Positions 21,899 to 38,781 of a DNA stretch of 64,000 nucleotides are shown here, in pieces (the stretch's first letter is position 1; each line of letters opens with the position of its first letter). Origin of the DNA: a virus. Lineage: Duplodnaviria > Caudoviricetes. The notes below the pieces were generated by a model. That model saw nothing but the letters and a program-made list of their open reading frames with translations, was not told the origin of the DNA and ran no database searches. Made by a program: the position numbers and the translations under genes. The stretch is from the IMG/VR virus record IMGVR_UViG_2839242338_000001, positions 1 to 64,000 of that record; one strand, given 5' to 3'.

Positions 21899-22192
21899 CT
21901 AATCAATACGGCGTTTAACTAATCCTTTTTTTAGCCAGTCGTCAATATCCCCCTTTGTATACCACACATTTCGTCCCATTTTGTAGAACCGAAGTCCATG
22001 CTTTTGGTAGTATCGTAAGGTATCTCCGTCACGTTTCAGGTACTCCATTACCTCTGTCTCGTTCATCAGGAGGCATCTGTCAAATTCCTTTTCTCGCTGG
22101 GCATCCCGTTCAGCGGATAGCCGTATAGCTTCTTCACATTGATCTAATAAATCAGTGATGTGGTGACCTAACTTTTCGTCAACTATCAACAT
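21899..22192 (-). CDS. Excisionase-like HTH protein
   Basis: LMNETEVMEYLKRDGDTLRYYQKHGLRFYKMGRNVWYTKGDIDDWL (HTH_17/MerR-like). Confidence 0.8.
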   Translation of the reverse strand: MLIVDEKLGHHITDLLDQCEEAIRLSAERDAQREKEFDRCLLMNETEVMEYLKRDGDTLRYYQKHGLRFYKMGRNVWYTKGDIDDWLKKGLVKRRID

Positions 22193-22230
22193 GTCTTAAA
22201 GGGAATTACAGTATGTTCTTCTGTTTCATA

Positions 22231-22530
22231 CTAGCCGCCATTACGCCGATTAACTATCCCTTTTGCCAGCCAATCGTCTATGTCTCCTTTTGTATACCAG
22301 ACCTCCTTGCCTTTTTTATAGAATCCGAGCCCATGCTTTTGATAATGGTGTAGAGTATTTGCATCCCGCTTCAAATACTTCATAGCCTCACTTTCGCTCA
22401 TTAGCCGACAGCGATCTAGCTCTTTTTGCAGCTTTTCTATTTGAGCGTTAGAATCCTCTAAATGCTTTGCGCATCTTTCTAATACGTCTAAAAGTCTATC
22501 TCCCAATTGATCATTAACTACTAATTTCAT
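22231..22530 (-). CDS. Excisionase-like HTH protein (tandem paralog)
   Basis: Same pattern, ending WYTKGDIDDWL. Confidence 0.8.
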   Translation of the reverse strand: MKLVVNDQLGDRLLDVLERCAKHLEDSNAQIEKLQKELDRCRLMSESEAMKYLKRDANTLHHYQKHGLGFYKKGKEVWYTKGDIDDWLAKGIVNRRNGG

Positions 22531-22661
22531 TGTCTATGAGCTTGCTTCTACTAGGTTTTACAGTATTACTGAAGTGTAATAATTGGCCTGAATAAATTAC
22601 TTTACTGGATTAGAAATACCAATGCATCTATGTTGGCTTACTGGATAAGCTAAAGGTACAA

Positions 22662-24082
22662 TCAGGGCTTATCCTGCTGATTTTTACGATTAAATACTGC
22701 TCTCATGGGCTTAGCAGCATTCTGTCTGCTTAATTCCTCAATGTACTTCATGGTCATGTTAAAGTCACTATGACCCAGCATCAACATAATATCAAGTAGC
22801 GTAATTGTCCCATCTTCCTGCATAGTCCGACGTGCTAAATCTGCAAAGCTATGACGGGCGTTATGCATGCGAAGTTTCCCCGAAGGCCCACCTTCTTCTC
22901 AATATCGGCCAGTACTTTATTGATCTGCCCATCCCAGTAGTTTATTCGAGATGACAACTGTAGTCGAATCTCATAGGGAGCACCGTACAAATCATCCCTG
23001 TTGAGGTAGGTGGCATACTTCTCTGTTGGCTTTAAATAAGGCAAAAGATAATCCGTTGGCTCCGCATCCTGTTTCCACCAACGCTTAAGTAGATTCTGTG
23101 CTTCTTCCAGGATTGGGATTTCTACCCTATTGCCTGTCTTTTGCATATGGTAGGTCAGGTTTACGGGGTGACCATCTTTATCTAAATCAAAGTTTTGATA
23201 CCGAAGTAGCAATATGTCTGAGCATCTGGCACCCGCAAGCAAATGAGATAGCATCCACAGGGAAAACGCTTCTTCGGGCGTAACCCGCCTTCGGGTTGAC
23301 TCGACCTTCGTCTTTTTGATTTTGGCAATATCCTCCTCATTAAACTTGGATTTATACGCTGATTTGGCAGGCAAAGGATCAATCTTTGAGAATGGCGATT
23401 GCAGTGCTGCGCTTTTCCCCGAATGTCCTTTTATTCGCAGTATTTCGTTGTGAACTGCGCTCAGCGATTCCATGTATTGATTGATACTGGATGGAATCAG
23501 CAATTTACCAGTACGAGGAGATATATAAGATTCTCGTAAATAATCCTGAAACTTATCCAGAAACGAAGGTGTAACGGCCTTTAATGTTAGCCCATCGGGT
23601 GCATATTCAGCCAGTAGGTTAACGGCTGTCTTTCTTAGTGTGTGAGTGCGAACCGCATGATTTTTAGCTTTCTCAAGAGCCAGTTCAGTCAACTCGAAAT
23701 AAAGTTCAGGGATTGGATTTTTATAACGATCAGCAATGCTTCTAGGGCTAAGCCCATACCTTAATAATTCCAGATTATCGGGGCTATCAGGATCTTGACA
23801 GCTTTCTACAAACTTTTCAATCCGAAGGTACTCGGCGTAAATTTGGGCGTTAATGCTGTCGGCATTTGGATCATTGACCACCCACTTTAACCAGATGCCG
23901 TTTTTGGTCTTCTTTCTGGTTTTATCCGTTGCTGCCCAGCATTGCTCTGCATTCTCAATTTTTACATTGGTTGAGATTCGTGCTGGCCGCTGGTCTTGCA
24001 TATGCAGACGAACATATACCGTTCTACGGCCCATTCTATCAGACTTGCCATCGAGTTCAATGTTTAATGAGATTCGGCCCAT
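22662..24082 (-). CDS. int: Tyrosine integrase, split by a frameshift near 22880
   Basis: Arm-binding-type N-terminus; GARCSDI (R), MQKTG (K), HNARHSFA, LGHSD, MTMKY across ORFs 22835-24082 and 22662-22868. Confidence 0.9.
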
Positions 24083-24501
24083 TGTTACTGAAATTATTTT
24101 GACAATGGTTGAAACTCCAAAAAATCTAAAAAGTTATATTATCGTGAAAAATAATTCACAGATTTTTTTGATAATTAAAATTACTATAAGTGCTTGAAAA
24201 ATATGTGTTTTAGCATAATTTTCGCATATTATTTCCTGTAATAAACTCTGACTCATTATATTGAAATAATCATATTAAGTTAATTGGAGTTATTTTCAAA
24301 TTAAGTCGGATTGGCGTACCCATTAGCTTTCAGATCCTTACGTGAAAAATATGTTTTTACATAGTTTTGACATAATTGGGCCTTCCAGGAACGTTAGTTC
24401 TACAGCAATCGAGAGCAAAAAAAATAGCCCCGACTGCTGCCGAGGCTGTTTGATCAATCATTCATTTAACTGCTAAAGAGTAGGCTAATCCATTCAAACG
24501 A

Positions 24502-24852
24502 TTATGAATCCTGCCCCAGAGACCTGGGTAGATTGTGTTTTAGACGATGAAGAATACCCGCAGATTCGGACATTCGAGTGTACACCACATCCAGCGCAGT
24601 ATCCATCAGTTCGTCTATAGTCTCTAATGTGCTGGTCTTGTCGGTGCCATCCCGATGCTGAGACACAACATACCTTCGGTAAGCAAATAAGGCTGACATA
24701 AACACGTCTAATTGAGATATCCCCGCATTATTCTCATCGCGGCCATCTACAGCCAGATAGACAGGTATGTTGATGTAACCTGGTTCAAAAGGTATACAAT
24801 CTGCTACTAACTGATCATTCCCAAGGGTTTGTTGAGTTTGTGTATTATCCAT
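24502..24852 (-). CDS. Hypothetical protein
   Basis: Clean ORF coupled to 24845-25285, followed by a hairpin at ~24426-24448. Confidence 0.6.
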   Translation of the reverse strand: MDNTQTQQTLGNDQLVADCIPFEPGYINIPVYLAVDGRDENNAGISQLDVFMSALFAYRRYVVSQHRDGTDKTSTLETIDELMDTALDVVYTRMSESAGILHRLKHNLPRSLGQDS

Positions 24853-25285
24853 GATTTACACCTCCTTTTTCTACCCAGGCTGCATGGGCTTCTCTGTTTT
24901 TTAAGGTTTGCCATTTCTCCTGCAAATTCATCAGGAACGCCGTTATTCGCAGTGTGTTGAAGGTAACATGATTACCAAACTCCTTAGTTGTCTTTCGGTA
25001 CTCCTTGTTTAGCCAGAAAAAAAACAGTTCGTTTATAACTTCGATGTCGGTAGCGGCTGAGGCTTCTGAGAGATGCCTACCAATCAATTCATCAAGCTCC
25101 TGACGAGCTCCCGCAGGGGAAGTGTGAAAGTCAATTGGCGATAGTTCAGGGATTGCCTCTAAGCTCGCTTCCTGTTGATCCTGACCGTCCGTAAATGGAG
25201 GTGTGTTTTGGGTTGCATCTTGAGCCGTTTGCTCAGGGTTGTTTGCATGAGAACCCCTACCCACGTAGTTTTGCTCCGTGTTCAT
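24845..25285 (-). CDS. Hypothetical protein
   Basis: Clean ORF ending in KGGVNHG and overlapping the next start, typical of Bacteroidota mobile-element operons. Confidence 0.6.
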   Translation of the reverse strand: MNTEQNYVGRGSHANNPEQTAQDATQNTPPFTDGQDQQEASLEAIPELSPIDFHTSPAGARQELDELIGRHLSEASAATDIEVINELFFFWLNKEYRKTTKEFGNHVTFNTLRITAFLMNLQEKWQTLKNREAHAAWVEKGGVNHG

Positions 25286-25490
25286 TTGATTTAAGAAGTT
25301 AGGTGAACATTTGCCCCTCCGCTATGGCCTGAGAAACTTTAGCATTGGGGCTTTTTATTGGTTATCAATGGGATTACTTACTTTGCCGGGCATCCTTAGT
25401 AAGGAACTATGCAGCTTTTCTGTCTCTCAATGACAATACAATATTAATCAAACTTTCCATTTATAGCAAGTTAAAGTGCAAAAAAATATT

Positions 25491-25700
25491 CTATTTGTGG
25501 AAAGTAATTTTAATCTGCATATCCAGAGCATCTGCTACTCTTTTGAGCGTTTCGACAGTTAAATTTTGCTTACCACTCTCGTACTTATTGACAGTAGGTT
25601 CACCCACGCCAATCTTTTCACCCAATTCTTTTTGGGTTAACCCTTGTTCGGTACGAGCTTGTCTAATTAAGCTACCTATCTCACTTTTAAAGTTTGACAT
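25491..25700 (-). CDS. XRE-family HTH regulator
   Basis: IRQARTEQGLTQKELGEKIGVGEPTVNKYESGKQNLTVETLKRVADAL. Confidence 0.95.
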   Translation of the reverse strand: MSNFKSEIGSLIRQARTEQGLTQKELGEKIGVGEPTVNKYESGKQNLTVETLKRVADALDMQIKITFHK

Positions 25701-26371
25701 CTGAATCTAAATATTAGTGTAAATATACAGTTTAGACTGCCATATATTGCAAGTAGTCACGCCATTCAGTAGCTAGCACACCACCCCACATGGAAAAGTT
25801 ACAATTACAATCAATTGATTTCCATTAGCTAACTAAAGGTAATCCACAGTTACGTTTTGCGCATGTCACCGCAAAACTCAAAAGGTAGTTTTCTCATTGG
25901 ATTTTCCGGTGACATCATAATAACTTGATAATCAATACGCTTATCGTATTTCTTGCGGCATCAGGATTCCTGACACCGATCTCAGGCAAAGGATACGATT
26001 TCAAATCTGCCCCTTCTCTCGCTTGCCATTCCGGGCAAATGATACCAGCGCTGGGATTACTAATGCTGTCCAGGCTTCGGCCTGATCTATTCCGAAAAGC
26101 AAAAGGCAAACCCGACCCCAAATAAAAGCCTACACTTTGTAATCAGAATATGCCCACAAAATGACCGGAGGGAGCAAAAAAAATGGGGGTTCTATATGAG
26201 GGGGACACGGTTATAGTCCCAGCATCATGGAACATTCATTTTCATTTCCAGACCCTTTTTTTCAGATGGGGGGGGTACTTTTTTTAAGTACTGGTACCTC
26301 TACCTCCCATATAGCAGGTACCGGTACTATAGCCGTAGCACCTTCTGACTTTTTTATAAATCAATGAATAA

Positions 26372-26540
26372 TACAGTATAGTGTTTATCAGATAGTTATG
26401 GTTGTCTTTGTATAATATAGCCAGTCTATATATCCTCATTATCAATACGTTACAGATAGGCGACTACAGTATACGGACAACTACCGGAAAATCTGGTAAT
26501 TCTGATTATCAGTGGGTTAGACTAACCTAGCTACAGTATT
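26372..26540. promoter_or_regulatory. Cluster of IHF-consensus boxes and TACAGTAT repeats (candidate ori or packaging site)
   Basis: WATCARNNNNTTR matches at 26386, 26440, 26507; TACAGTAT at 26372, 26465, 26532. Confidence 0.5.
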
Positions 26541-26861
26541 GCATACTCTTTTTATACGGGCAGGTTAATGATTAATAGGCCTATTTTAATACAGGTGAAA
26601 ACCGGATCAAAAGTCAGTTCGGGATTTTTCCGAAGTGATACTTAGTAAAGGATTAAACTGCTTTTGCAATCATGTGAATCCCCTCACTTAACCCGCAAAT
26701 CTTTTCCACTTGTCAACGATTTCAAATCGACACTGATAGTCAATGGTTTATGGCAGTTTGTTAAGTGAATGGTTGTGGGGTAGACCCACCAATCTCTTTA
26801 CTGCTGCCCTATTGTATCACATTGTTACAATAGCTATATTTACTTCATATATAGCGAGATA

Positions 26862-27229
26862 ATGGAACAGTTAGGCCAACGAAAGGGAGTGGGTTATGCG
26901 ATTAGACACAAATCGAACCCCTATAAAAGTGCAGAACAGCGCTATTATGCGACGATCTACCAGCCCGACGAGTATACACTCAATGTAATGCTGGCACTGC
27001 CCCCAGAGCCTTACGGGTGCTTTCTATGCTGGCGGCTCGGCAAGACCCACTAACTGGTATTAGTTATTGCACCAAACTGGAAATGAAGAAAATCCTGTCC
27101 GGCAAGCGCTGCAATCTCTCCCATGCAATAGGCGATCTGATTACTGCCGGACTGGTAGCTAAAGGAAAATCACTGAATACCTATTTCATTAACCCCAAAG
27201 CATTTCGTCCGATCTCCATCGACTTTTAG
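26862..27229 (+). CDS. RepL-like winged-HTH replication/maintenance protein, split by frameshift
   Basis: NLSHAIGDLITAGLVAK...NTYFINP pattern; overlapping ORFs 26862-27053 and 27017-27229. Confidence 0.55.
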
Positions 27230-27246
27230 CCGTATCGACCTTATCT

Positions 27247-30200
27247 ATGAACAAATACTTTCACGAACAGGAGTTTGGTGGTGGGATGCGGCAGGATATT
27301 GAGGCCAGCAAACAACCAGACGGAACTTACCGCTACGCTCGAAACGGGCGGATACTCTTTGTTCGTGACCAATCGTCAACCAGCGACGGGCATAGTTACG
27401 TGTTCAGCAACATTGTCGGCAATAAACTACTGCTCTCGCTTCCAACTGGCTCAACCATTCTGCACTTTGCCGAATCAAGGCAGGGCACAGTGGTCTTCTC
27501 CGTTCTTGGTAACAGTTCAGAGATTGGCCTTTGGGCGTTTGATACGGAACTGAACGGGATCATCACACCCGGCGAGTATACGACACTCTATACCGACAGC
27601 TACGATCCGCACCTGAAAAACAAGCCGTATGTTCTTAGAAAGTTTAATCAGCCCAATCAGGACCGGCTGGGCTGGCTAACTACGGATCGGTTTGACTCAG
27701 AAATTCGCTACGAGAACGAACGTATTGAGCGCATCTACTGGACGAACCGGCGTGGAACCAAGCACTGTCTGAACGTGCGGGCCAAACCTGCCGACTCCGA
27801 GCTTACGCCCCTGACGGGCTACTATCCGTCCTACTGGTCAGCCCATGCGTTTCGGGATCGGCCCGATGTGGTATTTCCCGTAATCAAACTACTGGGAGAG
27901 GTAAAGGAAAACTGCCGAGTGGCGCGTATCAGGTAGCGGTTCGTTACCGCTCTAAAGATGGTATCCGTTCGGCTTTCTCGCCCATCACACGCCGGGTATT
28001 CGTTACCAGTGAACCCCTGGAAGCGTATAACGCGGACGGAACGATTAATCAGGTACTAACATCAGCTTACCGCTCAAATCATCACAACCGGACGATGGGA
28101 GCGAGTGGTAAAGTGACGGGGAAAGTTTGCGATGGGAACTGAAAAACATCGACGTTCGCTGGCATGAGGTTGAACTGGCTGTTCTGTACTACGAAACCGA
28201 AGGCTTGCCACTGTCCATTACTGGACTCAAGCCCGTTTCAACGGGTGGAGCGTACCTGGACCCAACGAGTATAACCCTTGAAATTTCCCAGCTTGACGGA
28301 CAGGAACTAACGCTTTCTGATCTGACGCAGGTGTATGATCCGGTATTGAAGGTGGGCACCCTGGCAGCCAATCAGAATAGACTGTTTGAAGCAAACCTAA
28401 CCCGGCTCAAACCCTTTGGCGTGGACTCATCGGCAGTTAGCTACAGTCCGGTTCTTAAATCCATGCTGGCCGATGTAACCCGCGAGCCAACCTTTACCGC
28501 TGTTGATAATCCTGTCTCTCACCGGAAAGACAATGACCCGCTAACGAATACCTACGTGGATTCTGGGATTATCACGCGAAAAACGTTTGGCTCCCAGCAG
28601 GAAACCTACTCGGTTACTGACGACTATTTCAATGATAAGGGACAGGTCTGGGAATGGCTGCACGGCTCTTACTTCCGGGGAGAGACTGCCGAGTATGCCT
28701 GCGTATTGTTTGACCGGCTGGGTCAGCCTATGTTTGCCTATCCGCTACCTGCATTCACTTTCCCCGAGCAGTTCACTCCCGGCCCAGCCGGAGAGAAGGA
28801 TTACTATACACTCACCAAGTTAAATACCGTGAGTGGACTCTACGAGCTGCGCATGATGGGGGTTGCCGTGAGTGGCATTCGGATTCCCGAAGCTGATCTG
28901 TATGATGCAGACGGACGGCTGAATGTCAGCGGCTTTTCTATTGTCCGGCGCAAGCGACTTCCCCGCCTTCTGCATCAGGGGGTGGTATTTCCCGTCTGCC
29001 GTACCGAAGGACTCCGTCCCGAGGATGATTGTGCAGAGAATACGGGGCGAGCCTACAAGCCCTTTGCGTTGCCATATCTAAACTACTTTGGCGATGAGTT
29101 CATTCGACGGAACCGACATCTGTATCCATTGCCTACCCCTGCGGCACGGCTCATGATAACATCTGGCGGACCACTCACAGCCAGCCCTATTATCTCAACT
29201 ATCATTCGCCGGACGTACTCATTGAAGGGAGTTTTAAAGCCCCTCAGTCGGGGGATGTGTTAAAACATGTAGGCGTGGCGGGGCAAGCTTATACGCAGGC
29301 CGCGATTCCCCTACTGGCCCGAACATCGCCCTTCACGGCACACCATGATTATACCAAGAGTCTGAATACAACGACGGCCTTTTCACGCCTGACCAGTCTG
29401 ATCACGCTGGGGCGACCGGCAATTGGATCAACGAGTCGGCTCTCGCTGGCTTTACTACTGAATGAGGGTTTTGGGGTGACTTATGAGAAGTTTGATAAAG
29501 ATGATCTGAACCTCAAATTCGAGACAGGTACCCACCCCGAATGGATGGAAATCCCAGGGGACATCATTATCTACGGCGATGGCCTATTACAGCGGAATAG
29601 TGTGCTGATGAAAACCACCGACTGGGAAGCGGTCGATGTAGCCGAGAGCATTGACCGACCTGCTTCCTTCCGGCTAGTCAATTACATTCAGGCAACGCCC
29701 GAACGGAGTGATGAGTATGAACCCTACTATAGCCTCGGTCATTTTCAGCCGATAACCCAGGATATACTCAACGAGACGAATTTTGTCTATGACGAGGCTG
29801 GCTCACGCACTCATTTTGAATTTAATTCCGTGGAAGTCTGGGGTGGGGATGCGCATGTGGGCCTGTTTGACTTTACCCGGATTTATCCATTTCCCTCCGA
29901 TCAATGCGAGAAGCACGACTACAGCCTGTCGCATATCCTCCCCATCGAGAGTAAATACAACCTGATGCTGCGGCCTGGAAGGACCTTTGCGCGCTCTGCC
30001 GTCCGGCCCGAAGAAACCTCCTGCGACAATACCGGTGAGCAGTTCCTGAACGGGATCATGCACCAGCAACCCGAAGACTGGAACTACAATAAAGTGCTGT
30101 TGGTGGACACCTCAGCGGTTAGTTACGGCGTTCAGCCCCGAGACTTTCTGCCCGTCATTGAGCAACCTTCGGGCTTTTGCTGGTCGCCCGTCAAGCAGTC

Positions 30201-31221
30201 AGGTCAACTCCTGGACAACTGGCGGATGCGACTTGCTGGTGATGCGGGTCAGGGTGACGGCTCAATGGGAGCGATTACTAAACTCATCAAGAGCGAAAGT
30301 CAGGGACTCTATGCCTGGCATTCGCATGGGGTGGAACTACTGCCATTGGAACCCATGAATTTGCAGGCTACTGATACGGGAACAATCCTGACTTCATCAG
30401 GAGCCGTGTTTCACCAGGGCATTCCCATCAGTAGGAAATACGGTACGGTTCATCCCGATTCGGTATGGAGTCACGCGGGTCAGATGGGAGCCTGGGATGC
30501 CCGGATGGGCGTACTGCTTCGCCACGATACAGGTGGACTGGATTTATTGTCTCAATCAGAGAATCTCACCGACCTGATTGAGACACTGACACTTCCTTTA
30601 TCCGCCGGTAGTGATGTTACCATGAGTAACTGGACCTGTTTTACGGGCGTGGACTCTGAAAATGGTGACGTGTGGATTACGCTGTGCAAGGTAACCGGGC
30701 AAGCGCACACGCTTGGCTACAGCACCAAACTACGGGTTTTCGTGGGTGAATACGATGCCTATCCCGCTCTATACGGCAATCGAGGCAGGTTGCTGCTAAG
30801 TGTAAATCCAGCAAACCCCCACCAGCTTTGGGCGAATAATCGGGGGCAGTATGGCCAGTTTTATGGTAGTTACTTCCCCACACTCCTGCGCTTTATTGTC
30901 AATGTGCAGCCTACCCAGAATAAGACGTTCACCAACGGGCACATCCTGGTCAACGTGGGCGGCTGGCCACAAATTACTAAGGTAACCCACTGGACACCCA
31001 ATGGCGGAGAAGCGCAGCGCCATATCTTAACGCCCCATACCGATGACCGTTTTAGTTATCACAGAGATTGTCTGCAATACCCGGCACACGAGTGGAACTG
31101 GGACGAAAGTAAGGAGCGACTACGGGGCCACTATCAAACGGTTGAGCTGGAGATTGCCAATGATGAGAGTAATACACCGGCCCATATTATGAGCTACAAA
31201 ACCATCTTTCGATCTGCCTAG
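27247..31221 (+). CDS. Crassvirales-type muzzle / tail stabilisation protein (~1,320 codons), three frameshifts
   Basis: Ordered motifs FGGGMRQD...GTYRYARNGR, GKLPSGAYQVAVRY..DG..S..SPI, NRLFEANL, GSYFRGE..YACVLFD..G, HSPDV, WGGDAHV, PIESKYNLMLR, KQSGQLLDNW, ISRKYG, ERLRGHY; frame changes near 27900, 28125 and 29135. Confidence 0.75.
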
Positions 31222-31481: not shown

Positions 31482-32117
31482 CTATCTTTCCCCCTTTTCT
31501 GGATTTACTTTCTCCTCATACAATTCAATAATAAAGCATATCCATTTACCTTCGACTTTATTGACAATGAAGTCGAAGCCATGAGTAGAAGAGGTTCCGG
31601 GTGCATATTTTTGTATAAATGGCGGGTCAAATTTACCATCAACAAAGTCGAGTTTTGTATAAACCTTTCTACAAATTATCGAATCAGGGTACTTAATTAT
31701 ATCATCTATTTCAATACTTCTTGAGTGTGTATGGGTTTTTATTTTTGATCCCCAAAAAATAAAAACCCGAAGTCTAACCTTTTCTATTTCTATTACTTCA
31801 TACCCTATATTCTCAAATTTAACCTTGAATTGAGCTCCGCATTCAGTTGATTCTCTACCATCGGATATTTTGAATATATTAAGCGAGGATTCAGTTTTGT
31901 TTCTACTTCCTAGGCTTGCATTTTGAGTTAATATAAACGTACCGAAAACCCATATTCCGCTCACTAATATAGCGGTTACCTCAAATGAGTTTTTTGTAAT
32001 CTCTGTTCTTTCCTTGTAAAACGTAATTTTTCGTCTTGGTAGTTTTATAGTATATAGCAAAACATTACCTACAAAAAAACTAATAGGATTATTATTATTA
32101 TTATATATAGCATGCAC
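31482..32117 (-). CDS. Low-GC hypothetical membrane protein (3' end probably frameshifted)
   Basis: TM segment VTAILVSGIWVFGTFIL; AT-rich compared with its neighbours. Confidence 0.5.
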   Translation of the reverse strand: MHAIYNNNNNPISFFVGNVLLYTIKLPRRKITFYKERTEITKNSFEVTAILVSGIWVFGTFILTQNASLGSRNKTESSLNIFKISDGRESTECGAQFKVKFENIGYEVIEIEKVRLRVFIFWGSKIKTHTHSRSIEIDDIIKYPDSIICRKVYTKLDFVDGKFDPPFIQKYAPGTSSTHGFDFIVNKVEGKWICFIIELYEEKVNPEKGER

Positions 32118-32270
32118 TAAATCGCCTTTAAGTTGAAAGTATTATATCTGTTTTTTTTAGACCGAAAAAATATTATCATCCTTAAGGGAGAGCATCACTT
32201 TTCCCTCACAAATCAGGGTAAAATATATAAAGTAAAAAACGGGAAAATTCACCTATTTAATACCCTTTTT

Positions 32271-33550
32271 TTATTGTAGTGAAGCAAGACCTAACTGATT
32301 GAAGGGTGGATTTTGGCGCTGCCACTCGAAATAAGACGCTGACGATGTATGCACCTTGATTGTTGGTTTAGCATGGGGACGACACGGTTCGTCCCATTCG
32401 ATGGGATAGCTAGTGCATGCTTCAACTGTCAATAGTTCGATCTGTGACTCATCATTTCCAAGATTATAGTCTGGGTTAATTGCTTGACTTTCAATATGTT
32501 GAATTTTAGCGATGCTAGTTTCGGCATTAGTTGGTTTGAAAGTCCTGCTTTCCTGTCCCATTTGTCCCGTGTCCCACGAATGGGACGTAGGGTATTTAAA
32601 AGATGATTCTGATTGATCCTTGTCAATAGGATATTGTTTCCCATCTCTAATGGCATCGCGTATAGTACGGCAAGCGGCACGAAAGTCAGTCACATTCGCT
32701 TTACGACTAATGGCATCTTCCAAGGCAGCAACGGCCCCTGATTCATTCAGTATGCCACTTGCAATGTATCCCCAGCGGTATAGGCAGCTCTGTTTAGATG
32801 AGCATGTTTATGTCCATCAGGAGCATCTTCGATCACGCGAATACAGCGCCGAAGAGCTATATCGGAAAAATCATCCGACTTGTTGTTGTAGACGAATTTA
32901 TCTCTCCTGACAGGAATCAGTGGCGGTGGAGTATAGAGCCCACCAAAAGGAGTTGCTTCGTGGTTAAAGTAGCCGTCTGAGTCGTATGAATAGCCCCGCA
33001 GCCTGGATACGTCGGGAGTGTCATCAATCCGAACACCATACTTCTTTTGAAAAATCTCCCGCAAGGCCCGAAATTGACTGCCGTGTTGCTTTGGGTGGAC
33101 AATCGGTATCAACACAAAATAGCCTGTTCCAGAAACTGACTGACCGCAATAGGCAACATTCTTAATTCGGCATAACTGCTCTTTGAGTTGGCTATAATTA
33201 GAAATGGACTCATTCCCCTTAAGGTCAATATCCAGACAAATCAAACCGCTGTGGCGAATCAGGGCAGATTCTTCCCGGCGCGAGAATAGTCCACTGGGTG
33301 AAATGGCTGGTAGAGTGGCCTTGATTCGGTCTCGCTGTTTTTTGTCTTCTATAGCTCTAACCGATTCAACCTGTTTGCGATATTTCTCAGAGGTGAGCCA
33401 GGTTAATAAGTTAACTGTTCGGGGGTTATCAGGAGTCCTATAGTTGGCAAAGCAACTGACCTCAACGGACAAAATGGATTTTAAAGATGCGTCTGTCCCA
33501 TCAGTGGGACACGGGACAGTGGGACAGGGATTGGCTATCAGTGAGTCCAT
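32271..33550 (-). CDS. BT4734/VirE-N-type primase-like protein, split by a frameshift near 32775
   Basis: KATLPAISPSG, HSGLICLDID, SVSGTGYF, DVSRLRGYSYD, GHKHAHLNRAAY. Confidence 0.85.
32554..32586 (+). repeat. Iteron-like motif copy 1
   Basis: TGTCCCA-TT-TGTCCCG-TGTCCCA-CGAA-TGGGAC. Confidence 0.85.
33494..33526 (-). repeat. Iteron-like motif copy 2 (inverted)
   Basis: Reverse complement reads TGTCCCA-C-TGTCCCG-TGTCCCA-CTGA-TGGGACA. Confidence 0.85.
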
Positions 33551-35270
33551 CGGTATACAGTTGATTTTTTGCTCTCATCTCCAAATACTATCGTTGATAT
33601 CTCCCGGCAACTTTTTCCCTGCGCAAATAACTCTCGACATTTAGTTTTCTGGGCTTCTCTTTTTGGATCACTACCGACTGGCTCCGCATCGGCAGTAGGA
33701 GCTGGTTTGGGCAGTCTGTTGTAAATTCGTACGGCATGTGTTTTTAAGGTCTCCACGATACGTATGGCATTTTCAAAATCTTCATCGTTGCATAGAAGTG
33801 GTCCTTTAATCGCATTTTTATCGAATGCCCGAAGAACTGTAAAAACCATGGCAACGCGAAAACAGATAGTCCCCAAGCGGTTAACTGTTCCGTCCAAATC
33901 ATTCGCGACGTATTCCCGCAACTCAGTTTTCCAGGCCTGGAATAACTTCACAAATGCAGCCTGTTGATGATCAGTCAAATCAAAATACAATGGCTCTGTT
34001 AACGCATGAAGATGTCCATACATTTTTTTGAAACCTTGACCCAACTCGCCAAAATAAGCCGCATAGTCGCGTTTACGCTTATCGAAAACGTTACGAAACT
34101 CGGAGCTGCTTTTCATTTCGTAAAATAGGAATCGGCTAAATAGGCCATTCTCGGCGGTTGGCATTAAAGATTTTAGCTGATCAAAGGTGGATGACAGTAC
34201 TAACGACAGATACGGTCTGGATACCTCGACATACTCTCCACCATTAGCACGCCGGAAAAAAGTACATCTTTCATGATGGAAGGCATTTCGTAACAAATCA
34301 GTGAAGCCCGCATAGTCCTGCTTTACGGCATCGGCTAAGGTGTCACCTTCCGTTTCGAACATGATACCCCGTTCTGAGTTTTCCGTTAGGTTTTGATAGA
34401 GTCCAGTTTTTGAGTTATTCGCTGGAATAAAAAGCATTAACTGGGGTGGAGTGGTAGGCGGTATTGGTGGAGTTCGTTCCGCCGATTTTTCCTTCTGATA
34501 AACTTTTTTGTCCATCTCATACCGTTCTTGATCCCGCCTGAAGTCTTCAAGGGTCTGATTGTATTCGTCTCGAAGAGATTGGTGGATGCTATCACCAAGC
34601 AGGCGGGCATACTCAAGCCCCCCTTTCCTGTACCATATGGGGCTAGTACATAGGCATATAGGTTGCTACCGACGTATTTTCCATCATAATGCCCTAAAAT
34701 ATTAGGCATTAAACCACTGAGCACTCCAAGTGCTCCGACTAAAAATACTTCCCGTTCAGAATCAGTCGTAAGCTGTTTACATGCATTTGATAAACAACCT
34801 GGTAAGGCCTCATACATCTGACTAGAGAAGCTGGATTTGTCCCATTGTCCCGTGTCCCATTGATGGGACGAATCACTTTCTGTTTTATCGTTTGGCTTTT
34901 CCTTCGGCTCCTCTACCTGTTGCCATTCTTCATTTAAGTCAGTTTCTGGCTCAATATGGATGATACGTTCCTCACCGTTTGAAGATTTAACGGTAGCTGG
35001 TTGATCTGGACTTGCGCTATATTTAACTTCACTATCGGCCAGACTTTTAGATAACAGATATTCCGCTACAGCCTCATCTTTTGTTCTGGGACTCCCCTTT
35101 CCTTTATCTCGAGTCTTTGCGACAGCTTCACTTCTAAACTTGAACCAAGGCTTCTTCCAGGTGGGTGTCTCAAGCAAAATCCATACAGAACCATCTTTAG
35201 CGGTAAATTTTTTTGGCATATCTCCTCCCGCTACACCTTGCGTAGGAGCCTGATTTTGACTAATTTGCAT
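33538..35270 (-). CDS. DUF3987-family replication protein (P-loop-like), split by a frameshift near 34620
   Basis: NLYAYVLAPYGTGKG; LFIPANNSKTG; FETEGDTL; LLRNAFHHE; ENGLFSRFLFY; C-terminal HTH. Confidence 0.85.
34838..34869 (+). repeat. Iteron-like motif copy 3
   Basis: TGTCCCA-T-TGTCCCG-TGTCCCA-TTGA-TGGGAC. Confidence 0.85.
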
Positions 35271-35329
35271 AAGTCTTTGAAAGTTTTAGAGGTAATGATC
35301 GTGGTGGGTCATTGCCTCTTTTTATTGGG

Positions 35330-35650
35330 TTAGATCAGTGGCGCGAGAGTTAAAAGCCAGTTTTTGAGCAGGCCTAAGTCATTTACAACGTGAGTTGGAA
35401 CTCCTTTTTCTTCAGGCACTTCAACCACTTTTCCCACGATTGGAGGAATGATGATTCGGAAGTTTTTTTTGTGGATTTCGCACCTCAACAGAAAACCATA
35501 CTCCGGGGTCAAGACCTGCCATACAGTTCCATTCACTCCCCAAACAGCACGGGCGCAGTCGGTCACTAGAATAGGAGATTTTGGGCGAGAAGTCGCATTT
35601 TCCGGCTCGCAGAATAAGCCTAGGCGTAATCGCGGCTTAGGATTGCTCAT
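35330..35650 (-). CDS. Hypothetical protein
   Basis: ATGA overlap with the upstream xis gene. Confidence 0.55.
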   Translation of the reverse strand: MSNPKPRLRLGLFCEPENATSRPKSPILVTDCARAVWGVNGTVWQVLTPEYGFLLRCEIHKKNFRIIIPPIVGKVVEVPEEKGVPTHVVNDLGLLKNWLLTLAPLI

Positions 35651-36009
35651 GCCGATACCCCTTTTTGCGAACGCTTGCGAAGGTGCGCACTTACCTGTAC
35701 ATCAGCAGCGCGTTCAATTTCTGCAATATCCACCGTCTGGCGTGTTTGACTGCGTAGCCAATTGAGTATAATGGCTTTTTCGTAAAGAACTCGCTTTCCA
35801 AGCTTGATAACGCCTGGTATTTCTCCCGACGCTGATTTTATTCGCAACGTTGATTCTGGCACACCTGAGCAGGTAGTCGCCAGCCATTTGAAATCGCCGT
35901 AGGGGTCGGCATTAGGTAAAGGTGATGGTGCGGATTTATGTTTGAGGTCAAGTAGCAAATCCTCAATATTGCTTAACCGCCTTGCAATTGTTTCAAATGG
36001 ATTTTCCAT
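35647..36009 (-). CDS. Excisionase-like HTH protein
   Basis: MENPFETIARRLSNIEDLLLDLK...GEIPGVIKLGKRVLYEK..ILNWL. Confidence 0.85.
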   Translation of the reverse strand: MENPFETIARRLSNIEDLLLDLKHKSAPSPLPNADPYGDFKWLATTCSGVPESTLRIKSASGEIPGVIKLGKRVLYEKAIILNWLRSQTRQTVDIAEIERAADVQVSAHLRKRSQKGVSA

Positions 36010-36057
36010 TGCATCAGTGTTTGTTTGACTGTGCAATGATAGGGGGCAAAATAGGTG

Positions 36058-36087
36058 GTAAGGGGCAGGTAAGGGTTACGTAAGGGG
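36058..36087. promoter_or_regulatory. Three GTAAGGG repeats at 11-bp period upstream of xis
   Basis: Copies at 36058, 36069, 36080; TATCATTG -7-like box on the minus strand at ~36034-36041. Confidence 0.55.
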
Positions 36088-37206
36088 GTTACGAGTTTCA
36101 GCAATACTTAATTCATCTTTAGCCAATTCTAAAGCTTCAGGATAATCATTTAGCAACTGAATCGCGTTTTTCAAAGCTTGTCTGTTTTCGATAGATAATC
36201 TGTCATTTCTGCTTTTACAGAAACGATTATAAAACTGCTGAAATGGCTTCCAGGATAAGCCATAGAAGTCGGTAGCTTCCTTGTAGGACTTTTCCATCTT
36301 TCCAGCCACAAAAGGCGGCAAGCATTTTTTTTCGTGGCAATAGTAATAGAATAGAGCTAGAGAAGCCTGTGTAACTTCTTTACTTACAGTGCTTTTCGCT
36401 GATTCTAGTAAAGTGTCTCTTGGGAGCATTTTTTCCTCTGCTACAGCCTCTGTTAGGTAGGATATAACAGCTTCGCCAACTTCAATTTCACCACTCAATA
36501 TTGATAAGTAGTCGTCTTTACTTATTCCATAATCAAATGAATCAATTGGCAAACCATAATGCGTTACTTTAACCTTCTTTGATTTGTAGAAAGATGTCAG
36601 TGTTTTAGCACGTTGCAGATTAACATCATAGGGCGGCCTTTCCCATAATGCCCAGCTTATAGCTATAAGTTTTCTTCCGAGTGCCCTTATATATAACTCT
36701 ATATCTGCAAAAACATGCTGTATAATGTCTTCTGATGTGGGTAATTTCTTATATGCTACAATTTGGCAAGTCACTGAAAATCTTTCACTCAGAAGACGGA
36801 TTAAAAAGTCTCCCCCCATCAGTTGGTTTATAAAATTGTAGCCAGGAGCTTTATCTAAAATCTCATAGAAGACAAAGAATTGCTCAACTAACCAATTCCA
36901 GTCTAAGGGAGATTTTTCAGGGAAGTAGAATACATTTTCAACTTTGTTTTCACCGTTATATGACCATATTGGAAGTAAACCAATACGGTACATCCATAAT
37001 GCACGATACAATTCATTTGTAATTTTACTAGCCTTAAAGGAGCCATCTGGGCGTGTTAATCTGGTAAAAAAGAATAATTCCGACTCCTGTCGAACTCTTT
37101 TTAGTGTTTCTATCTGATAGATAGTAGGTTTCTCGAACTGTGCCATTACGCATTTTTCCGCCCGCTCAAATGGCGACGCTAGTAGGGATCGCAATAGGTC
37201 TGCCAT
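36076..37206 (-). CDS. Hypothetical protein (possible element regulator)
   Basis: 376-aa ORF between int and xis. Confidence 0.65.
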   Translation of the reverse strand: MADLLRSLLASPFERAEKCVMAQFEKPTIYQIETLKRVRQESELFFFTRLTRPDGSFKASKITNELYRALWMYRIGLLPIWSYNGENKVENVFYFPEKSPLDWNWLVEQFFVFYEILDKAPGYNFINQLMGGDFLIRLLSERFSVTCQIVAYKKLPTSEDIIQHVFADIELYIRALGRKLIAISWALWERPPYDVNLQRAKTLTSFYKSKKVKVTHYGLPIDSFDYGISKDDYLSILSGEIEVGEAVISYLTEAVAEEKMLPRDTLLESAKSTVSKEVTQASLALFYYYCHEKKCLPPFVAGKMEKSYKEATDFYGLSWKPFQQFYNRFCKSRNDRLSIENRQALKNAIQLLNDYPEALELAKDELSIAETRNPLT

Positions 37207-37260
37207 ATTATTTTCGAATGTGTTTACATACTTAACCTCTTTGTTGATCTGCTAGTAGGA

Positions 37261-38586
37261 TTACAAGTTGTCAAAGGCAGCATCAACTAAATCCGTATCA
37301 AACTCAGACAGATAAATCTGCGTCGTCCGTTCGTCACTGTGCCCCATTGCTTCACTAATGACACCTGTAGCCACGCCTGATCTTTTAAGTGACATAGCGA
37401 AACTGTGACGCGCAACATAGGTCGTAAGTGGGGTTTCTATTCCCACGGAGGCTCCTATGGTTTTCAAGTCTACATTAACCTGCCCCATAATCTTGCTACA
37501 ACGATTCTGGCGCTGGGTTGGAGTAGTATGTAGAGCAGTATTTAGGATTGGGAAAATGTAGCTAGTTGACCGAACTTCACTAGGCCGGTAACGGTCAAGA
37601 ATAGCCAGCGTTTGTGTCATCAGGCGAATGGAAAACTTACCCCCAGTCTTTTGGCGGATATAAGTCAAACGTGGCTTGTCATCCAGGTCTTTGCCGATAT
37701 TTGACCATCGTAAGTTGGCCATATCCACGAAATTGATTCCACCACAGTAGTATGAGAACAGGAATAAGTCTTTGGCCAGTTGTAGGCGCTCCTGCGTGTT
37801 ACGCAAGCCTGCATATTTCCCATCATCCTGTGATGGCTGATAGGCTTCTATTTTTCGAATATCAAGTTTACTGATTGCCCGTTTTGTCGTTTTGGTGTCA
37901 AACTTGCCAATCTGAAACTTGTTGGTTTCAGCGGTATTGCGGGCAAAAGGGTAGGAGGTAGGCTTTGAATAGCCGTTGGCAATAGCTTTATTAAGTACTG
38001 CTCGCAGGGTGCGAAATCGAACGGAAAGCGAGCTGTCAGCTACTCCCTCACTTCGCATCTTGGTTTCCCACTGGTTACAGAACTTGACTGTAACGGCATC
38101 GAAAGAAGTGTCTTGACCTTCACCAATAAAATGTTGTAAGCTGTTCTTGACATCCCTATAAACCCTTCGGTTGCCAACGTTTCCCGTTTTTTCGAACTGA
38201 TTAATTAATTCATCGAAATAGGCTAGAAGCTTAAACTTACGAGTGGCTAACCGTTCTGTGCTTACCCGTGTCGCAACGGATTGGGCGTCGTGAACCTCGT
38301 CAGCTTCGGCAAGCGTTTCGGCAGCGTCGCTGTATTTTTCCTCCCATTTGCGTAGTGCTGCCTCAATAGCTTTGCGTTTATCGATTGGGACATTCTTTCG
38401 AAATGTATTTGTTTCCTCGTTCCAGAATTGGGGATGCAATGACAGGCCCGTAGCGATATATTTGCGTTTACGATCTTTGGTAATTCGCAGCATAAACGGG
38501 TGCGAGCCATCGGCAAGTGTTTTGGAAGGGAAGTAGATTGCCTTTACGCTTGCCTGGCTTTCCTTATGCTCGGTTGATTTGGCCAT
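37261..38586 (-). CDS. int: Tyrosine integrase (arm-binding, SAM-like and catalytic domains)
   Basis: LRITKDRKRKYI; GGINFVDM; RQKTG; YVARHSFA; MGHSD; TTQIY. Confidence 0.95.
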   Translation of the reverse strand: MAKSTEHKESQASVKAIYFPSKTLADGSHPFMLRITKDRKRKYIATGLSLHPQFWNEETNTFRKNVPIDKRKAIEAALRKWEEKYSDAAETLAEADEVHDAQSVATRVSTERLATRKFKLLAYFDELINQFEKTGNVGNRRVYRDVKNSLQHFIGEGQDTSFDAVTVKFCNQWETKMRSEGVADSSLSVRFRTLRAVLNKAIANGYSKPTSYPFARNTAETNKFQIGKFDTKTTKRAISKLDIRKIEAYQPSQDDGKYAGLRNTQERLQLAKDLFLFSYYCGGINFVDMANLRWSNIGKDLDDKPRLTYIRQKTGGKFSIRLMTQTLAILDRYRPSEVRSTSYIFPILNTALHTTPTQRQNRCSKIMGQVNVDLKTIGASVGIETPLTTYVARHSFAMSLKRSGVATGVISEAMGHSDERTTQIYLSEFDTDLVDAAFDNL

Positions 38587-38733: not shown

Positions 38734-38779
38734 TGCTTTGGGAGCAGGAGGTCGTAGGTTCGAATCCTGCCACCCCGAC
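38734..38779 (+). tRNA. 3' half of tRNA-Pro(TGG), an att site rather than an intact tRNA
   Basis: tgctTTGGgagcaggaggtcgtaggttcgaatcctgccaccccgac contains anticodon loop, T-arm and acceptor 3' strand; no D-arm or 5' acceptor upstream. Confidence 0.85.
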
Positions 38780-38781
38780 AC

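Follow-up and report, generated by a model that had tools for sequence, protein, structure and literature searches.

Why a muzzle gene of the crAss type should stand apart from any virion operon in a Cytophagales genome is the question raised by the locus described here, which lies in a 64,000-nt stretch of DNA (the window). The initial annotation had proposed a satellite-like element using a captured muzzle to poison or redirect the tail assembly of crAss-like phages, and had given as its alternative a deletion relic of a crAss-related phage in a non-gut host. The carrier is a soil/water bacterium. The features considered are collected in Table 1.

Table 1. Features of the muzzle locus and its surroundings, in window coordinates.
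Feature	Position	Strand	Basis
Two tandem xis-like genes, 97 and 99 aa	21899..22530	-	HTH_17; mutual 55% identity
Tyrosine integrase	22662..24082	-	Pfam Phage_integrase and Phage_int_SAM_5
Two small ORFs, 116 and 146 aa, part of the backbone	24502..25285	-	
XRE-family HTH regulator, divergent from the RepL-muzzle pair	25491..25700	-	Pfam HTH_3, E 6.9e-18
Long non-coding spacer between the divergent XRE and RepL-like genes	25701..26861	.	Repeat scan
RepL-like small winged-helix gene (predicted)	26862..27229	+	ESM Atlas; homologues in prophages
Muzzle gene, full-length crAss-type (tail-tip gatekeeper)	27247..31221	+	Pfam; AF2/Foldseek; intact homologue
Muzzle shift 1, apparent -1	near 27894-27896 (GGG)	+	
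Muzzle shift 2, apparent -1	within 28112-28142 (GGGG at 28118-28121)	+	
Muzzle shift 3, apparent -1	29136-29139 (CCCC)	+	
Separate small integrative element	31482..38586	-	PHROGs integrase, primase, helicase; Pfam HTH_17
Exact 48-nt repeat of the tRNA-Pro(TGG) 3' part, right boundary of the 49.6-kb island	38734..38781	+	

The muzzle frame extends from an ATG to a stop over about 1327 codons and was read in four pieces (27193-27936, 27729-28142, 28112-29263 and 29098-31221). In the Pfam scan, three of them matched PF25731 (crAss_MUZ) with the order of the model kept (E 5.2e-11, model positions 3-162; E 2.3e-6, positions 450-552, at 26.5 bits slightly below the 27-bit cut-off; E 6.2e-19, positions 909-1215), and PF25729 (crAss_MUZ_C) was matched with an E value of 3.3e-15. 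The pieces covered residues 4-1308 of an intact 1308-aa homologue colinearly, at 50-58% identity, and when joined, with X at the breaks, they gave 1327 aa with zero in-frame stops. The structural comparison with the PhicrAss001 muzzle foreseen in the initial annotation also gave a match: an AF2 model of the part 29257-31221 (pLDDT 85.7) had 7QOK_A, the muzzle of that phage, as its best PDB match in Foldseek (E 5.1e-20), at 15-16% identity across the structural alignment and TM 0.45 by query. No PDB sequence was matched at E ≤ 0.01 with a profile of five close muzzle relatives. A tblastn search of 50,697 phage records matched 12, all of them either crAss-named or from phages that we take to be crAss-like. 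The annotation of this frame as a full-length Crassvirales-like muzzle gene was thus confirmed by the two Pfam families and the structural match.

In an alignment of 60 sequences, the muzzle retained all 3 invariant columns as well as the 21 nearly invariant columns inside the window piece, and in a quick tree its terminal branch (0.46) was not longer than that of its sister (0.56) or the median (0.96); hence, no sign of relaxed drift was seen. Its GC content of 52.5% is about 5 points above that of the host (47.3%). A similar excess was found for the muzzles of two related prophages, G291 (60.3% against 55.1% in the flanks) and G176 (62.8% against 58.8%), which is consistent with a donor phage adapted to this host.

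The initial annotation had held that the frameshifts needed correction, and rightly so. Each of the three muzzle shifts is of the kind that one missing base would produce, and deletion-type shifts of this sort also occur in conserved host genes, at 0.40 per kb: 10 of 28 such genes were broken in this way, by 13 shifts of which 12 fit a single deletion, and a homopolymer of at least 4 bases was present at 9 of these sites. Furthermore, an independent contig reaches shift 3, the single muzzle site that it covers, with a depth of only 2.9; it has an extra C after 29135 that restores the frame there, and is otherwise identical to the window across the aligned span. On these two grounds, the muzzle frameshifts are best read as assembly errors, single-base deletions. 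That the shifts are instead real mutations, and the whole unit a dead, decaying pseudogene, appears very unlikely. Such decay would account for the density of shifts in the element (five in about 5.8 kb of coding sequence, namely three in the muzzle and one each in the RepL-like and integrase genes), which exceeds the genome-wide value, and the independent data reach only the one muzzle site. Nevertheless, all five shifts are of the deletion type by frame arithmetic on their coordinates, the three in the 3.98 kb of the muzzle compare with 1.6 expected (Poisson P(≥3) about 0.22), and the joined frame is free of stops, which, with the broken host genes and the recovered C, argues against decay. 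Since the indels are best explained as errors of assembly, a retained function of the muzzle is possible.

The TAG stop of the RepL-like gene is separated by 17 nt from the muzzle ATG, exactly as annotated, and its own apparent frameshift lies at a CCCCC run (27000-27004). The nearest ESM Atlas clusters for the protein were RepL PF05732 / wHTH (score 0.93). The gene had no match in Pfam or PHROGs, with Pfam RepL being absent even at E ≤ 10, so the label "RepL-like" denotes a putative kinship, a resemblance by language model and predicted structure only. Homologues of 112-169 aa were present in three intact muzzle-bearing prophages, and a partial one (73 aa) was found in the metagenome contig L064. 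The "origin-like" region described upstream proved to hold only weak repeats: in the repeat scan, a pair of 11-nt direct repeats (26738-26748, 26764-26774) and a palindrome with 11-nt arms (26809-26833) directly upstream of the RepL-like start, and no Rfam family was matched in the spacer. A near-consensus promoter-like stretch just upstream of the gene was read by eye, as were direct repeats ahead of the RepL-like genes in G291 and G304.

The absence of capsid, portal, ring and terminase genes beside the muzzle, part of the original description, was found to extend to the whole genome. A tblastn comparison of 163 ORFs from two related prophage regions with the entire 9.1-Mb genome of the carrier recovered only the muzzle and RepL-like genes, genes of the XRE and integrase types, and a few others whose hits lie at unrelated distant loci. 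No capsid, portal, ring or terminase gene and no helper-type phage gene was found in this search, and the ~830-aa protein, LysM protein, ~520-aa protein, giant protein and TerL of the related prophages were equally absent. Fragments of neighbouring phage genes were not detected on either side of the pair, even at E ≤ 5. The muzzle is therefore confirmed as an orphan in this genome, complete and accompanied only by the RepL-like gene of related phages.

Genome searches for further muzzle genes, to which four collection scans were added, took in 300 members of the family, 53 of the genus and 400 of the order. Carriers comprised 5 of the 300 other family genomes, one further genome of the genus and 5 of the 400 order genomes, and the frame was always open (1243-1850 aa) wherever the contig spanned the whole gene. 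Of 18 further distinct muzzle loci examined with context, not one was an orphan; each lay among other large co-directional genes in a phage-type cluster, with large same-strand genes after the muzzle in 16 of the 16 loci where downstream sequence was in view. The supposed solo recurrence beside an integrase and RepL was accordingly not seen at any of the 18. The nearest relative of both genes is one prophage, G291:C1 (muzzle 50-58%, RepL-like 46-49% identity), and a RepL-like gene precedes the muzzle in the same orientation in G291 (by 13.5 kb), G304 (5.8 kb) and L064 (7.3 kb). The G304 copy is the first gene to run rightward at a strand switch, with repeats upstream. In the intact relatives an ~830-aa protein and several proteins of ~180-235 aa are encoded between the RepL-like gene and the muzzle; after the muzzle comes a conserved set of large genes, one of which encodes a giant protein of 1500 to over 4000 aa.

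The XRE gene, two small ORFs, integrase and xis reported as the neighbours of the pair were found as described, the XRE gene and the integrase with Pfam matches. This backbone is low in GC and unrelated to the pair, and neither att repeats nor defined ends were found for it. The integrase was read in two overlapping frame pieces (22835-24082 and 22662-22868), and the same genome holds an intact paralogue of 454 aa. Only the xis-like ORF 22231-22530 was covered by the Pfam scan (HTH_17, E 1.1e-4, below the cut-off); 21899-22192 was called xis-like from its identity to it, and a third xis-like paralogue adjoins the paralogous integrase. Among 53 other genomes of the genus, 26 share the XRE gene and its flank (~25200-25750) at 64-97% DNA identity. 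The two small ORFs had no match in Pfam or PADLOC; two other members of the genus have weak homologues of the 146-aa one next to XRE genes. The PADLOC scan, which covered flanking ORFs, gave no match. In the paralogous int/xis/XRE backbone, located elsewhere in the genome, the place of the pair is taken by conflict-system-type cargo (Pepco/Trypco1), so that the RepL-muzzle pair itself looks like cargo and not debris.

The pair sits within a composite 49.6-kb island at tRNA-Pro. The 3' end of this tRNA is repeated twice (48 and 32 nt, exact), with islands of 49.6 and 45.3 kb; tRNA-Ser(GCT) and tRNA-Pro(TGG) are adjacent at the left edge. Three integrases were found in the window, and an ISL3 transposase lies next to the tRNA. 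The separate integrative element abuts the 3' end of the muzzle and comprises an integrase (37261-38586), a 376-aa ORF, a frameshifted primase-helicase (32747-35270), an HTH_17 xis-like gene and small ORFs. It separates the muzzle from the adjacent prophage, which is of a different, tape-measure type, as first proposed (42794-46627 matches phrog_28, E 1e-46). The setting is a hot spot with stacked mobile elements. That the whole 49.6-kb island might be a novel phage with virion genes too divergent to be recognised is extremely improbable. A 48-nt att-type repeat delimits the island, an integrase stands at one end and many of its ORFs are without a family match, but its remainder (ISL3, a Tubulin_2 protein, T9SS-sorted Ig-repeat proteins, OmpA-family, CHAP, glycosyltransferase) does not consist of virion genes, its gene orientation is mixed and no conserved muzzle partner occurs anywhere in the genome.

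The reading towards which the evidence leans, by a modest measure, is that the pair derives by deletion or recombination from a temperate crAss-like prophage, and the alternative put forward in the initial annotation fits better: intact temperate crAss-like prophages with the order RepL-like, then muzzle, exist in relatives. Both genes have their nearest relatives in one prophage, with order and orientation kept, no orphan was found among the other loci, and the 97.45-kb G291 prophage, flanked by a 20-bp direct repeat, lies in between the same two tRNA genes, tRNA-Ser(GCT) and tRNA-Pro(TGG), that stand side by side at the left edge of the island here. A temperate phage of this type, still intact in related Cytophagales genomes, would have left the RepL-like and muzzle genes; everything between them and all that followed the muzzle would have been lost, and the pair would have come to adjoin the unrelated backbone in the tRNA-Pro island. 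By itself the protein would form at most a hexameric tail-tip plug and could not build a virion. We infer both this origin and the lack of a present function, the likeliest current state being a defective-prophage remnant without a demonstrated role. The full operons around the homologues agree with a relic; the indels, read as assembly errors, do not speak for decay.

Several observations count against a remnant and favour its main rival, a cassette retained (exapted) for satellite or anti-phage use, which we regard as rather unlikely. Both genes are complete, with clean boundaries, a 17-nt junction and no neighbouring gene fragments, where random deletions in ~90% coding DNA would usually cut genes; the 1327-codon frame is whole once assembly errors are allowed for; conserved residues are retained on a branch that is not elongated; and Pepco/Trypco1 cargo occupies the same position in the paralogous backbone. 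No relative of the muzzle closer than 51% identity was found, which likewise counted against a remnant. The palindrome and the promoter-like stretch (the latter by eye) directly upstream of the RepL-like gene also suit a cassette, and int, xis, XRE, replication-type and one helper-type structural gene within ~9.5 kb resemble phage satellites. On this view, a small integrative element would keep one virion gene together with a crAss-type replication module made up of the spacer repeats and the RepL-like gene. Muzzle protein produced from the resident element while a related crAss-like phage infects the cell would either enter helper tails (satellite-style retargeting or hitch-hiking) or cap and poison tail assembly (interference). 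Nevertheless, the arrangement is a one-off among muzzle loci, so that a propagating element family with this cargo is not in evidence; neither a packaging gene nor a packaging signal was recognised, the PADLOC scan of flanking ORFs was negative, the genome holds no helper-type phage and the backbone lacks defined ends. The satellite-like element of the initial annotation thus found no positive support, with 0/18 recurrence and no helper-type genes in the genome.

Among known systems, Bayfield et al. (2023, PMC10172136) describe the PhicrAss001 muzzle as a hexameric assembly of ~1 MDa that acts as the gate of the tail tip and probably makes contact with the cell surface. The protein described here is of the same family as this gp44 (7QOK/7QOL) by profile and predicted fold, with the same N-to-C order of regions and a similar length (solved chains of 1354-1361 residues), but differs in its low identity and TM value, in its host (Cytophagales instead of gut Bacteroides) and in standing without ring, hub, portal, capsid or cargo genes. 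For the RepL genes of the prototypic crAssphage (Carjivirus communis), a preprint (PMC10983915) places one as the first gene in a strand block, immediately downstream of a predicted origin. The likeness to that description is a small RepL-type gene heading a co-directional block, as at the G304 strand switch with its upstream repeats; the difference is that the gene here has no Pfam RepL match and resembles RepL in language-model features and a predicted wHTH fold only. Phage satellites (P4-like, PICI, cfPICI, PLE) are likewise small, with integrase, excisionase-like, XRE-type, replication-type and helper-virion-type genes, but the element here is without a packaging or capsid-remodelling gene, defined ends, a helper or a second example, and to our knowledge no satellite carries only a nozzle/muzzle gene. 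Cryptic prophage remnants also consist of few phage genes left in an integration hot spot among mobile elements, usually with truncated edge genes, whereas both genes here are whole and the edges clean. The crAss-like prophages (G291:C1, G304:C4, G176:C1 and IMG/VR contigs of 67-96 kb) have integrases not close to the one beside the pair, and a full module (~830-aa protein, about four small proteins, muzzle, LysM, ~520-aa protein, giant protein of 2932 to over 4000 aa, TerL (phrog_6681)) of which the window carries only two genes, RepL-like and muzzle; it is nevertheless in these prophages that the nearest muzzles (42-58% identity) are found, as is the nearest RepL-like gene, which stands before the muzzle in the same orientation and has short direct repeats ahead of it.

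The gene at 27247-31221 is a true, full-length muzzle gene of the crAss type, as the initial annotation had proposed from its ordered motifs. Successive frame pieces of this gene matched the Pfam family crAss_MUZ (PF25731) in model order, at model positions 3-162 (E 5.2e-11), 450-552 (E 2.3e-6; its 26.5 bits fall short of the 27-bit cut-off) and 909-1215 (E 6.2e-19), and its C-terminus matched crAss_MUZ_C (PF25729) over model positions 1-81 of 83 (E 3.3e-15, 56.7 bits). A whole-genome profile search of the Cytophagales genome that holds the window (G000) recovered the same three muzzle places, and no second match to the muzzle model was found anywhere in G000. When the gene was compared by tblastn with 50,697 phage records, 12 were matched at 21-25.5% identity, among them the uncultured phages cr85_1, cr128_1 and cr108_1, the Bacteroides phages DAC15 and DAC17, the Cellulophaga phage phi14:2 and one faecal virus, which we take to be crAss-like; the matched genes were annotated in most records as 'stabilization protein' or as a virion structural protein. 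In a full HMMER comparison with 1.84 billion cluster representatives, 729 relatives were obtained at E <= 1e-3, nearly all of 1200-1600 aa, with the query spanning their C-terminal half. Neither this comparison nor alignment-based scans of contigs (genome, viral and metagenome) yielded a relative above 51% identity, and a single-protein scan of a genome contig collection gave none closer. The features of the locus are collected in the table.

Features at and around the RepL-like/muzzle pair (window coordinates)
Feature	Coordinates	Strand	Position	Remarks
Host-type glycosyltransferase			left of the xis-like genes	
Integrase backbone (xis-like genes, integrase, small ORFs and XRE gene)	21899-25700	-	left of the pair	
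Two xis-like genes			left of the integrase	one with sub-threshold HTH_17, the other 55% identical to it
Tyrosine integrase			left of the small ORFs	
Two small ORFs			left of the XRE gene	no assigned family
XRE gene			left of the pair	HTH_3, E 6.9e-18
RepL-like gene	26862-27229	+	17 nt before the muzzle gene	
crAss-type muzzle gene	27247 (ATG) to 31221 (stop)	+		four overlapping open frames: 27193-27936, 27729-28142, 28112-29263, 29098-31221
211-aa ORF			right of the muzzle gene	
Separate small element			right of the 211-aa ORF	frameshifted primase-helicase, xis-like gene, own integrase (37261-38586)
Third integrase	38738-40048			leads a prophage with a 1277-aa tape measure

The structural comparison with the PhicrAss001 muzzle led to the same identification. 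The product of 29257-31221, the C-terminal 654 aa, was folded alone by AlphaFold2 with a 60-sequence alignment as input (mean pLDDT 85.7). The best Foldseek match of this C-terminal model was the PhicrAss001 muzzle 7QOK_A (E 5.1e-20, TM 0.45 by query), followed by the muzzle chain 7QOL_P and then by the podophage nozzles of SU10, VP1, P22 (gp10) and T7 (gp12); by sequence, a profile of five muzzle relatives gave no PDB match at E <= 0.01. In the published description (PMC10172136), the PhicrAss001 muzzle has a core like the T7 nozzle, to which crAss-specific parts are added. The order of the Foldseek matches agreed with this description and, together with the Pfam matches and the relatives, identified the gene.

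Each of the three frame changes in the muzzle gene was of the kind that one missing base would produce, and one shift in the RepL-like gene and one in the integrase had the same deletion direction. All were located at or near runs of G or C: GGG 27894, GGGG 28118 and CCCC 29136 in the muzzle, CCCCC 27000 in the RepL-like gene and GGG 22856 in the integrase. The genome itself (9.09 Mb in four contigs) has a marker completeness of only 94.65%. For a survey of its frameshifts, 176 ORFs of at least 200 aa from 18 stretches of related genomes were searched against G000, and 28 were kept whose best match, outside the muzzle finding, had at least 60% identity and at least 80% coverage. Ten of these 28 conserved genes were broken in the assembly, with 13 frameshifts in 32,178 nt (0.40 per kb); 12 of the 13 had the single-deletion direction, and a homopolymer of at least 4 bases, mostly C or G, was present at nine of the junctions. 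At this rate 1.6 shifts would be expected in the 3.98 kb of the muzzle gene, so that the three observed are unremarkable (Poisson P(>=3) ~0.22). With an X placed at each break, the gene could be translated over 1327 codons free of in-frame stops.

Furthermore, the one public run found to overlap the window has four short contigs in the muzzle gene (28118-28271, 28503-28650, 28869-29024 and 29014-29169; depth 2.9); a look-up for RNA runs on this stretch gave none. They were identical to the window over the aligned spans, save one extra C behind 29135, exactly at the third muzzle shift; the run covers 28118-29169 of the gene and one of the three shift sites, and may share the sample of the assembly. 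One of the contigs begins exactly at 28118, with 34 unaligned letters. Most probably, the frameshifts of the element are assembly errors and the muzzle gene is intact. Deletion-type frameshifts were seen across the whole of G000 (within the window, for example, at 52000-53329, 54544-55846, 56858-58224 and 32747-35270), and apparent pseudogenes in this genome are not to be taken as decay.

The muzzle gene stands without its structural partners. When 163 ORFs from the two best related prophage regions were compared by tblastn with the whole of G000, only the RepL-like gene and XRE-type and integrase-type genes were matched near the muzzle besides the muzzle itself, with a few others at unrelated distant loci; terminase, the giant protein and the ~830-aa protein that accompany the muzzle in related prophages were absent from G000. 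No other virion-module gene of the related phages was present in the window or the genome, in agreement with the initial annotation, which had also correctly assigned the adjacent prophage to a different, tape-measure type. In the flanks, a tblastn search with all ORFs of three related prophage regions (E <= 5) detected no neighbouring phage-gene fragments beyond the RepL-like gene; at ~50% divergence, pieces under ~30 aa would be missed by this search. The GC content was 40.7% in the backbone, 47.6% in the RepL-like gene and 52.5% in the muzzle gene, the genome having 47.3%.

The integrase, xis-like, XRE and RepL-like genes lie within ~9.5 kb, in a unit without recognised ends, and no direct or inverted repeats were found between the candidate junctions of the integrase/xis/XRE-RepL-muzzle unit. 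No Rfam family was matched across 20000-40500, and PADLOC gave no credible match for the small ORFs or for the cargo of a paralogous backbone described below. The Bacteroidota-type promoter consensus TTTG-N17-23-TAnnTTTG had three matches in the window, 2.45 being expected, none of them near the pair, and a scan for sigma-70-type promoters was not above chance. The XRE gene, the start of a 146-aa ORF and the spacer between them (~25200-25750) were found at 64-97% DNA identity in 26 of the 53 other genomes of the genus, often in several copies per genome and in varied contexts; the copy in one genus relative (G211) adjoins an ORF of 1267 aa, perhaps a tape measure. This segment looks like a promiscuous regulatory module. 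In run X1, a contig of 15,986 letters passes from a stretch resembling 25433-25477 to one resembling the window from 32296 on, omitting 6818 bases; the likeness is low (7 differences in 45), and the side has 35 letters. Probably, this contig derives from another organism's related element that lacks the RepL-muzzle block, or it reflects a shared motif.

Relatives of the muzzle locus were collected with the muzzle model in 300 other genomes of the family (five with a match) and 400 other genomes of the order (five with a match, four of these new). The DNA of the locus, searched against 53 other members of the genus, gave one additional muzzle (in genome G304), and scans of genome, viral and metagenome contig collections gave eight more loci. 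Homologues standing alone beside integrase or RepL genes did not recur: none of the 18 distinct other muzzle loci with context was an orphan, all of them lying within phage-type gene clusters. No second orphan muzzle was present among these loci or in the searched genome samples, and no family of related elements was seen. Large genes on the same strand followed the muzzle in all 16 loci with downstream sequence in view, typically encoding a protein of 580-1326 aa (with a LysM domain in genome G291), a protein of ~500-540 aa and a giant ORF of 1500 to >4000 aa. Upstream, many loci had a ~800-850-aa protein and several proteins of ~180-260 aa; the ~830-aa protein, a suspected portal, had no match in Pfam, PHROGs or phage tblastn, and its AlphaFold2 model from six sequences reached a pLDDT of 43.3.

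The closest locus was found on contig C1 of G291, where a 1308-aa muzzle with 50-58% identity is carried by a prophage of 97.45 kb. This prophage, inserted between tRNA-Ser(GCT) and tRNA-Pro(TGG), is flanked by a 20-bp direct repeat at the 3' end of the tRNA-Ser gene; it encodes a probable integrase of 408 aa at its end and a terminase large subunit (phrog_6681, E 8.6e-29). It also encodes a giant protein of 2932 aa, and contig C21 of the same genome holds a second, more distant muzzle locus. The muzzle-bearing prophage on contig C1 of genome G176 contains three tRNA-like genes (Pro-GGG, Met-CAT and a third for which an odd anticodon of 4 bases was called; concatenated-loci positions 17034-17619), and its integrase adjoins a tRNA-like 3' end.

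The RepL-like gene is, judging from these comparisons of sequence and gene order, of the same phage lineage as the muzzle. Its nearest homologue, with 46-49% identity, is a 121-aa ORF of the G291 prophage, 13.5 kb upstream of the muzzle and on the same strand. Homologues were also detected in G304, on the metagenome contig L064 and in G176 (169 aa). The one in G304 has 112 aa, is the first of the rightward genes at a strand switch and precedes the muzzle by 5.8 kb; the one on L064 precedes it by 7.3 kb. Direct repeats upstream of the gene were seen by eye in G291 and G304; in the window, a repeat scan found two 11-nt direct repeats and one palindrome upstream, and no iteron array. According to a preprint on prototypic crAssphage (PMC10983915), a RepL gene takes the first position of a strand block with a predicted origin directly upstream, a layout that the RepL-like gene here resembles.

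The initial annotation of a RepL-like gene just before the muzzle held for adjacency and position, but not for a profile match: neither the window pieces nor two intact homologues matched the RepL profile PF05732 in Pfam, even at E <= 10. PHROGs gave no family for the protein, and a word-based homologue search with the gene returned its own record alone. For the G291 protein, the nearest ESM Atlas clusters carry PF05732 (score 0.93, 165-169 shared features against a guide value of 170), and the structure rows gave TM 0.67-0.74 to wHTH, Crp-type and RepL clusters, the C-terminal half lying on winged-helix models; the Atlas's own model has a pLDDT of 0.54, and by the tool's guide values these matches are leads only. 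From the profile negatives, these leads and the layout, 'RepL-like' denotes resemblance and position, not an established family membership.

In G000, 19 nt separate tRNA-Ser(GCT) from tRNA-Pro(TGG) at a place ten kilobases to the left of the window, and this spacing shows that the tRNA-Ser site occupied by the prophage in G291 is empty in G000. The 3' 46 nt of tRNA-Pro(TGG) (contig C1:24938-25012), with two flanking bases, recur exactly at window positions 38734-38781, and a 32-nt copy of its 3' end lies at C1:119907-119938. The three tRNA-Pro 3' ends delimit two stacked islands of 49.6 kb and 45.3 kb. The former includes the muzzle and ends at integrase 37261-38586; its remainder holds genes for an ISL3 transposase, a Tubulin_2 protein, T9SS-sorted Ig-repeat proteins, and OmpA-family, CHAP and glycosyltransferase proteins, with no virion gene recognised there. 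The latter is the tape-measure prophage. Just past the second tRNA-Pro copy, where the integrase gene 38738-40048 starts, the sequence is similar to that following tRNA-Pro in G291, so the two genomes seem to use the same site. An insertion orthologous to the G291 prophage was also considered: the genes flanking that prophage map to C1:15-24.7 kb of G000, but the tRNA-Ser site is unoccupied here and the next genes map elsewhere in G291, and it was not supported.

Additional observations were made in this region. The Tubulin_2 protein (895 aa, E 2.9e-43; C1:27134-29821, minus strand) is encoded just inside the tRNA-Pro island, beside the ISL3 transposase. At 17187-19975 (minus strand), ~15 tandem copies of a 51-nt (17-aa) repeat occur with a weak T9SS C-terminal sorting signal, flanked by 36-nt and 27-nt direct repeats at 15060-15148 and 20432-20518; the genes there are apparently one large surface protein broken by frameshifts. 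The integrase backbone recurs once in G000 with other cargo: a diverged paralogue, whose 454-aa integrase is intact, lies at C1:125966-~132000. Where the RepL-muzzle pair would stand, this copy has four different genes of low GC, one of them encoding Pepco/Trypco1 domains, which are possibly conflict-system cargo; within C1:125966-133200, this cargo adjoins a lipoprotein and a 336-aa ORF.

On balance, we slightly favour the reading of the pair as a remnant of a temperate crAss-like prophage. The nearest relatives of both genes belong to one phage lineage in which order and strand are kept (G291, G304, L064), the arrangement is unique among the 18 loci, and the locus is a pile-up of mobile elements. 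Several observations argue against mere debris: both genes are whole and closely adjoining, no truncated pieces of neighbouring genes are detectable at the flanks, all invariant and nearly invariant residues of a 60-sequence alignment that fall in the window's muzzle piece are kept, the terminal branch of the muzzle shows no lengthening (0.46, where its sister has 0.56 and the median is 0.96, by a quick tree with an incomplete careful search), and conflict-type cargo occupies the corresponding position in the paralogous backbone. Such a pattern could reflect a recent, clean recombination between genes at their boundaries, or else selection for both genes. True pseudogene decay of the unit is quite improbable, and that the locus is a complete virus that went unrecognised is hardly credible.

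A retained satellite or interference role for the pair, as suggested in the initial annotation, is doubtful: the wholeness of both genes would suit it, but the element was not seen to recur as a family. A more specific and somewhat less probable version is that a mini-element derived from a temperate crAss-like phage keeps only a replication-type module and the tail-tip gatekeeper, used against or atop incoming relatives. Such an element would be replicated in step with an infecting phage and would supply a foreign muzzle. This muzzle might plug the tails of the helper, as a structural-decoy defence, or might give hijacked virions a new tip; in that case the element would be a satellite of crAss-like phages, the first of its kind.

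Until now, crAss-like phages have mostly been known from the gut, as viruses that do not integrate. The present locus, with its intact relatives, reveals a temperate crAss-like lineage in Cytophagales of soil and water that leaves recognisable pieces in host chromosomes. With a whole, conserved-looking tail-tip gene of 4 kb standing alone next to a replication-type gene, the locus lends itself to testing whether bacteria or their small mobile elements reuse single podovirus virion parts in defence or to hitch-hike; even as mere debris, it would record a past infection of the host by crAss-like phages. The assembly frameshifts are, in addition, a warning against inferring decay. In the literature searched, no description was found of an intact solitary muzzle joined to a replication-type gene on an integrase backbone, nor any paper joining crAss-like, prophage and Cytophagales; among the matches listed on Crassvirales, satellites and tail stabilization proteins, none concerned an orphan muzzle by its title. 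The muzzle family and defective prophages are already known kinds; what appears new, from the sequence of this single case, is an intact solitary muzzle gene joined to its phage's replication-type gene on a small integrase backbone.
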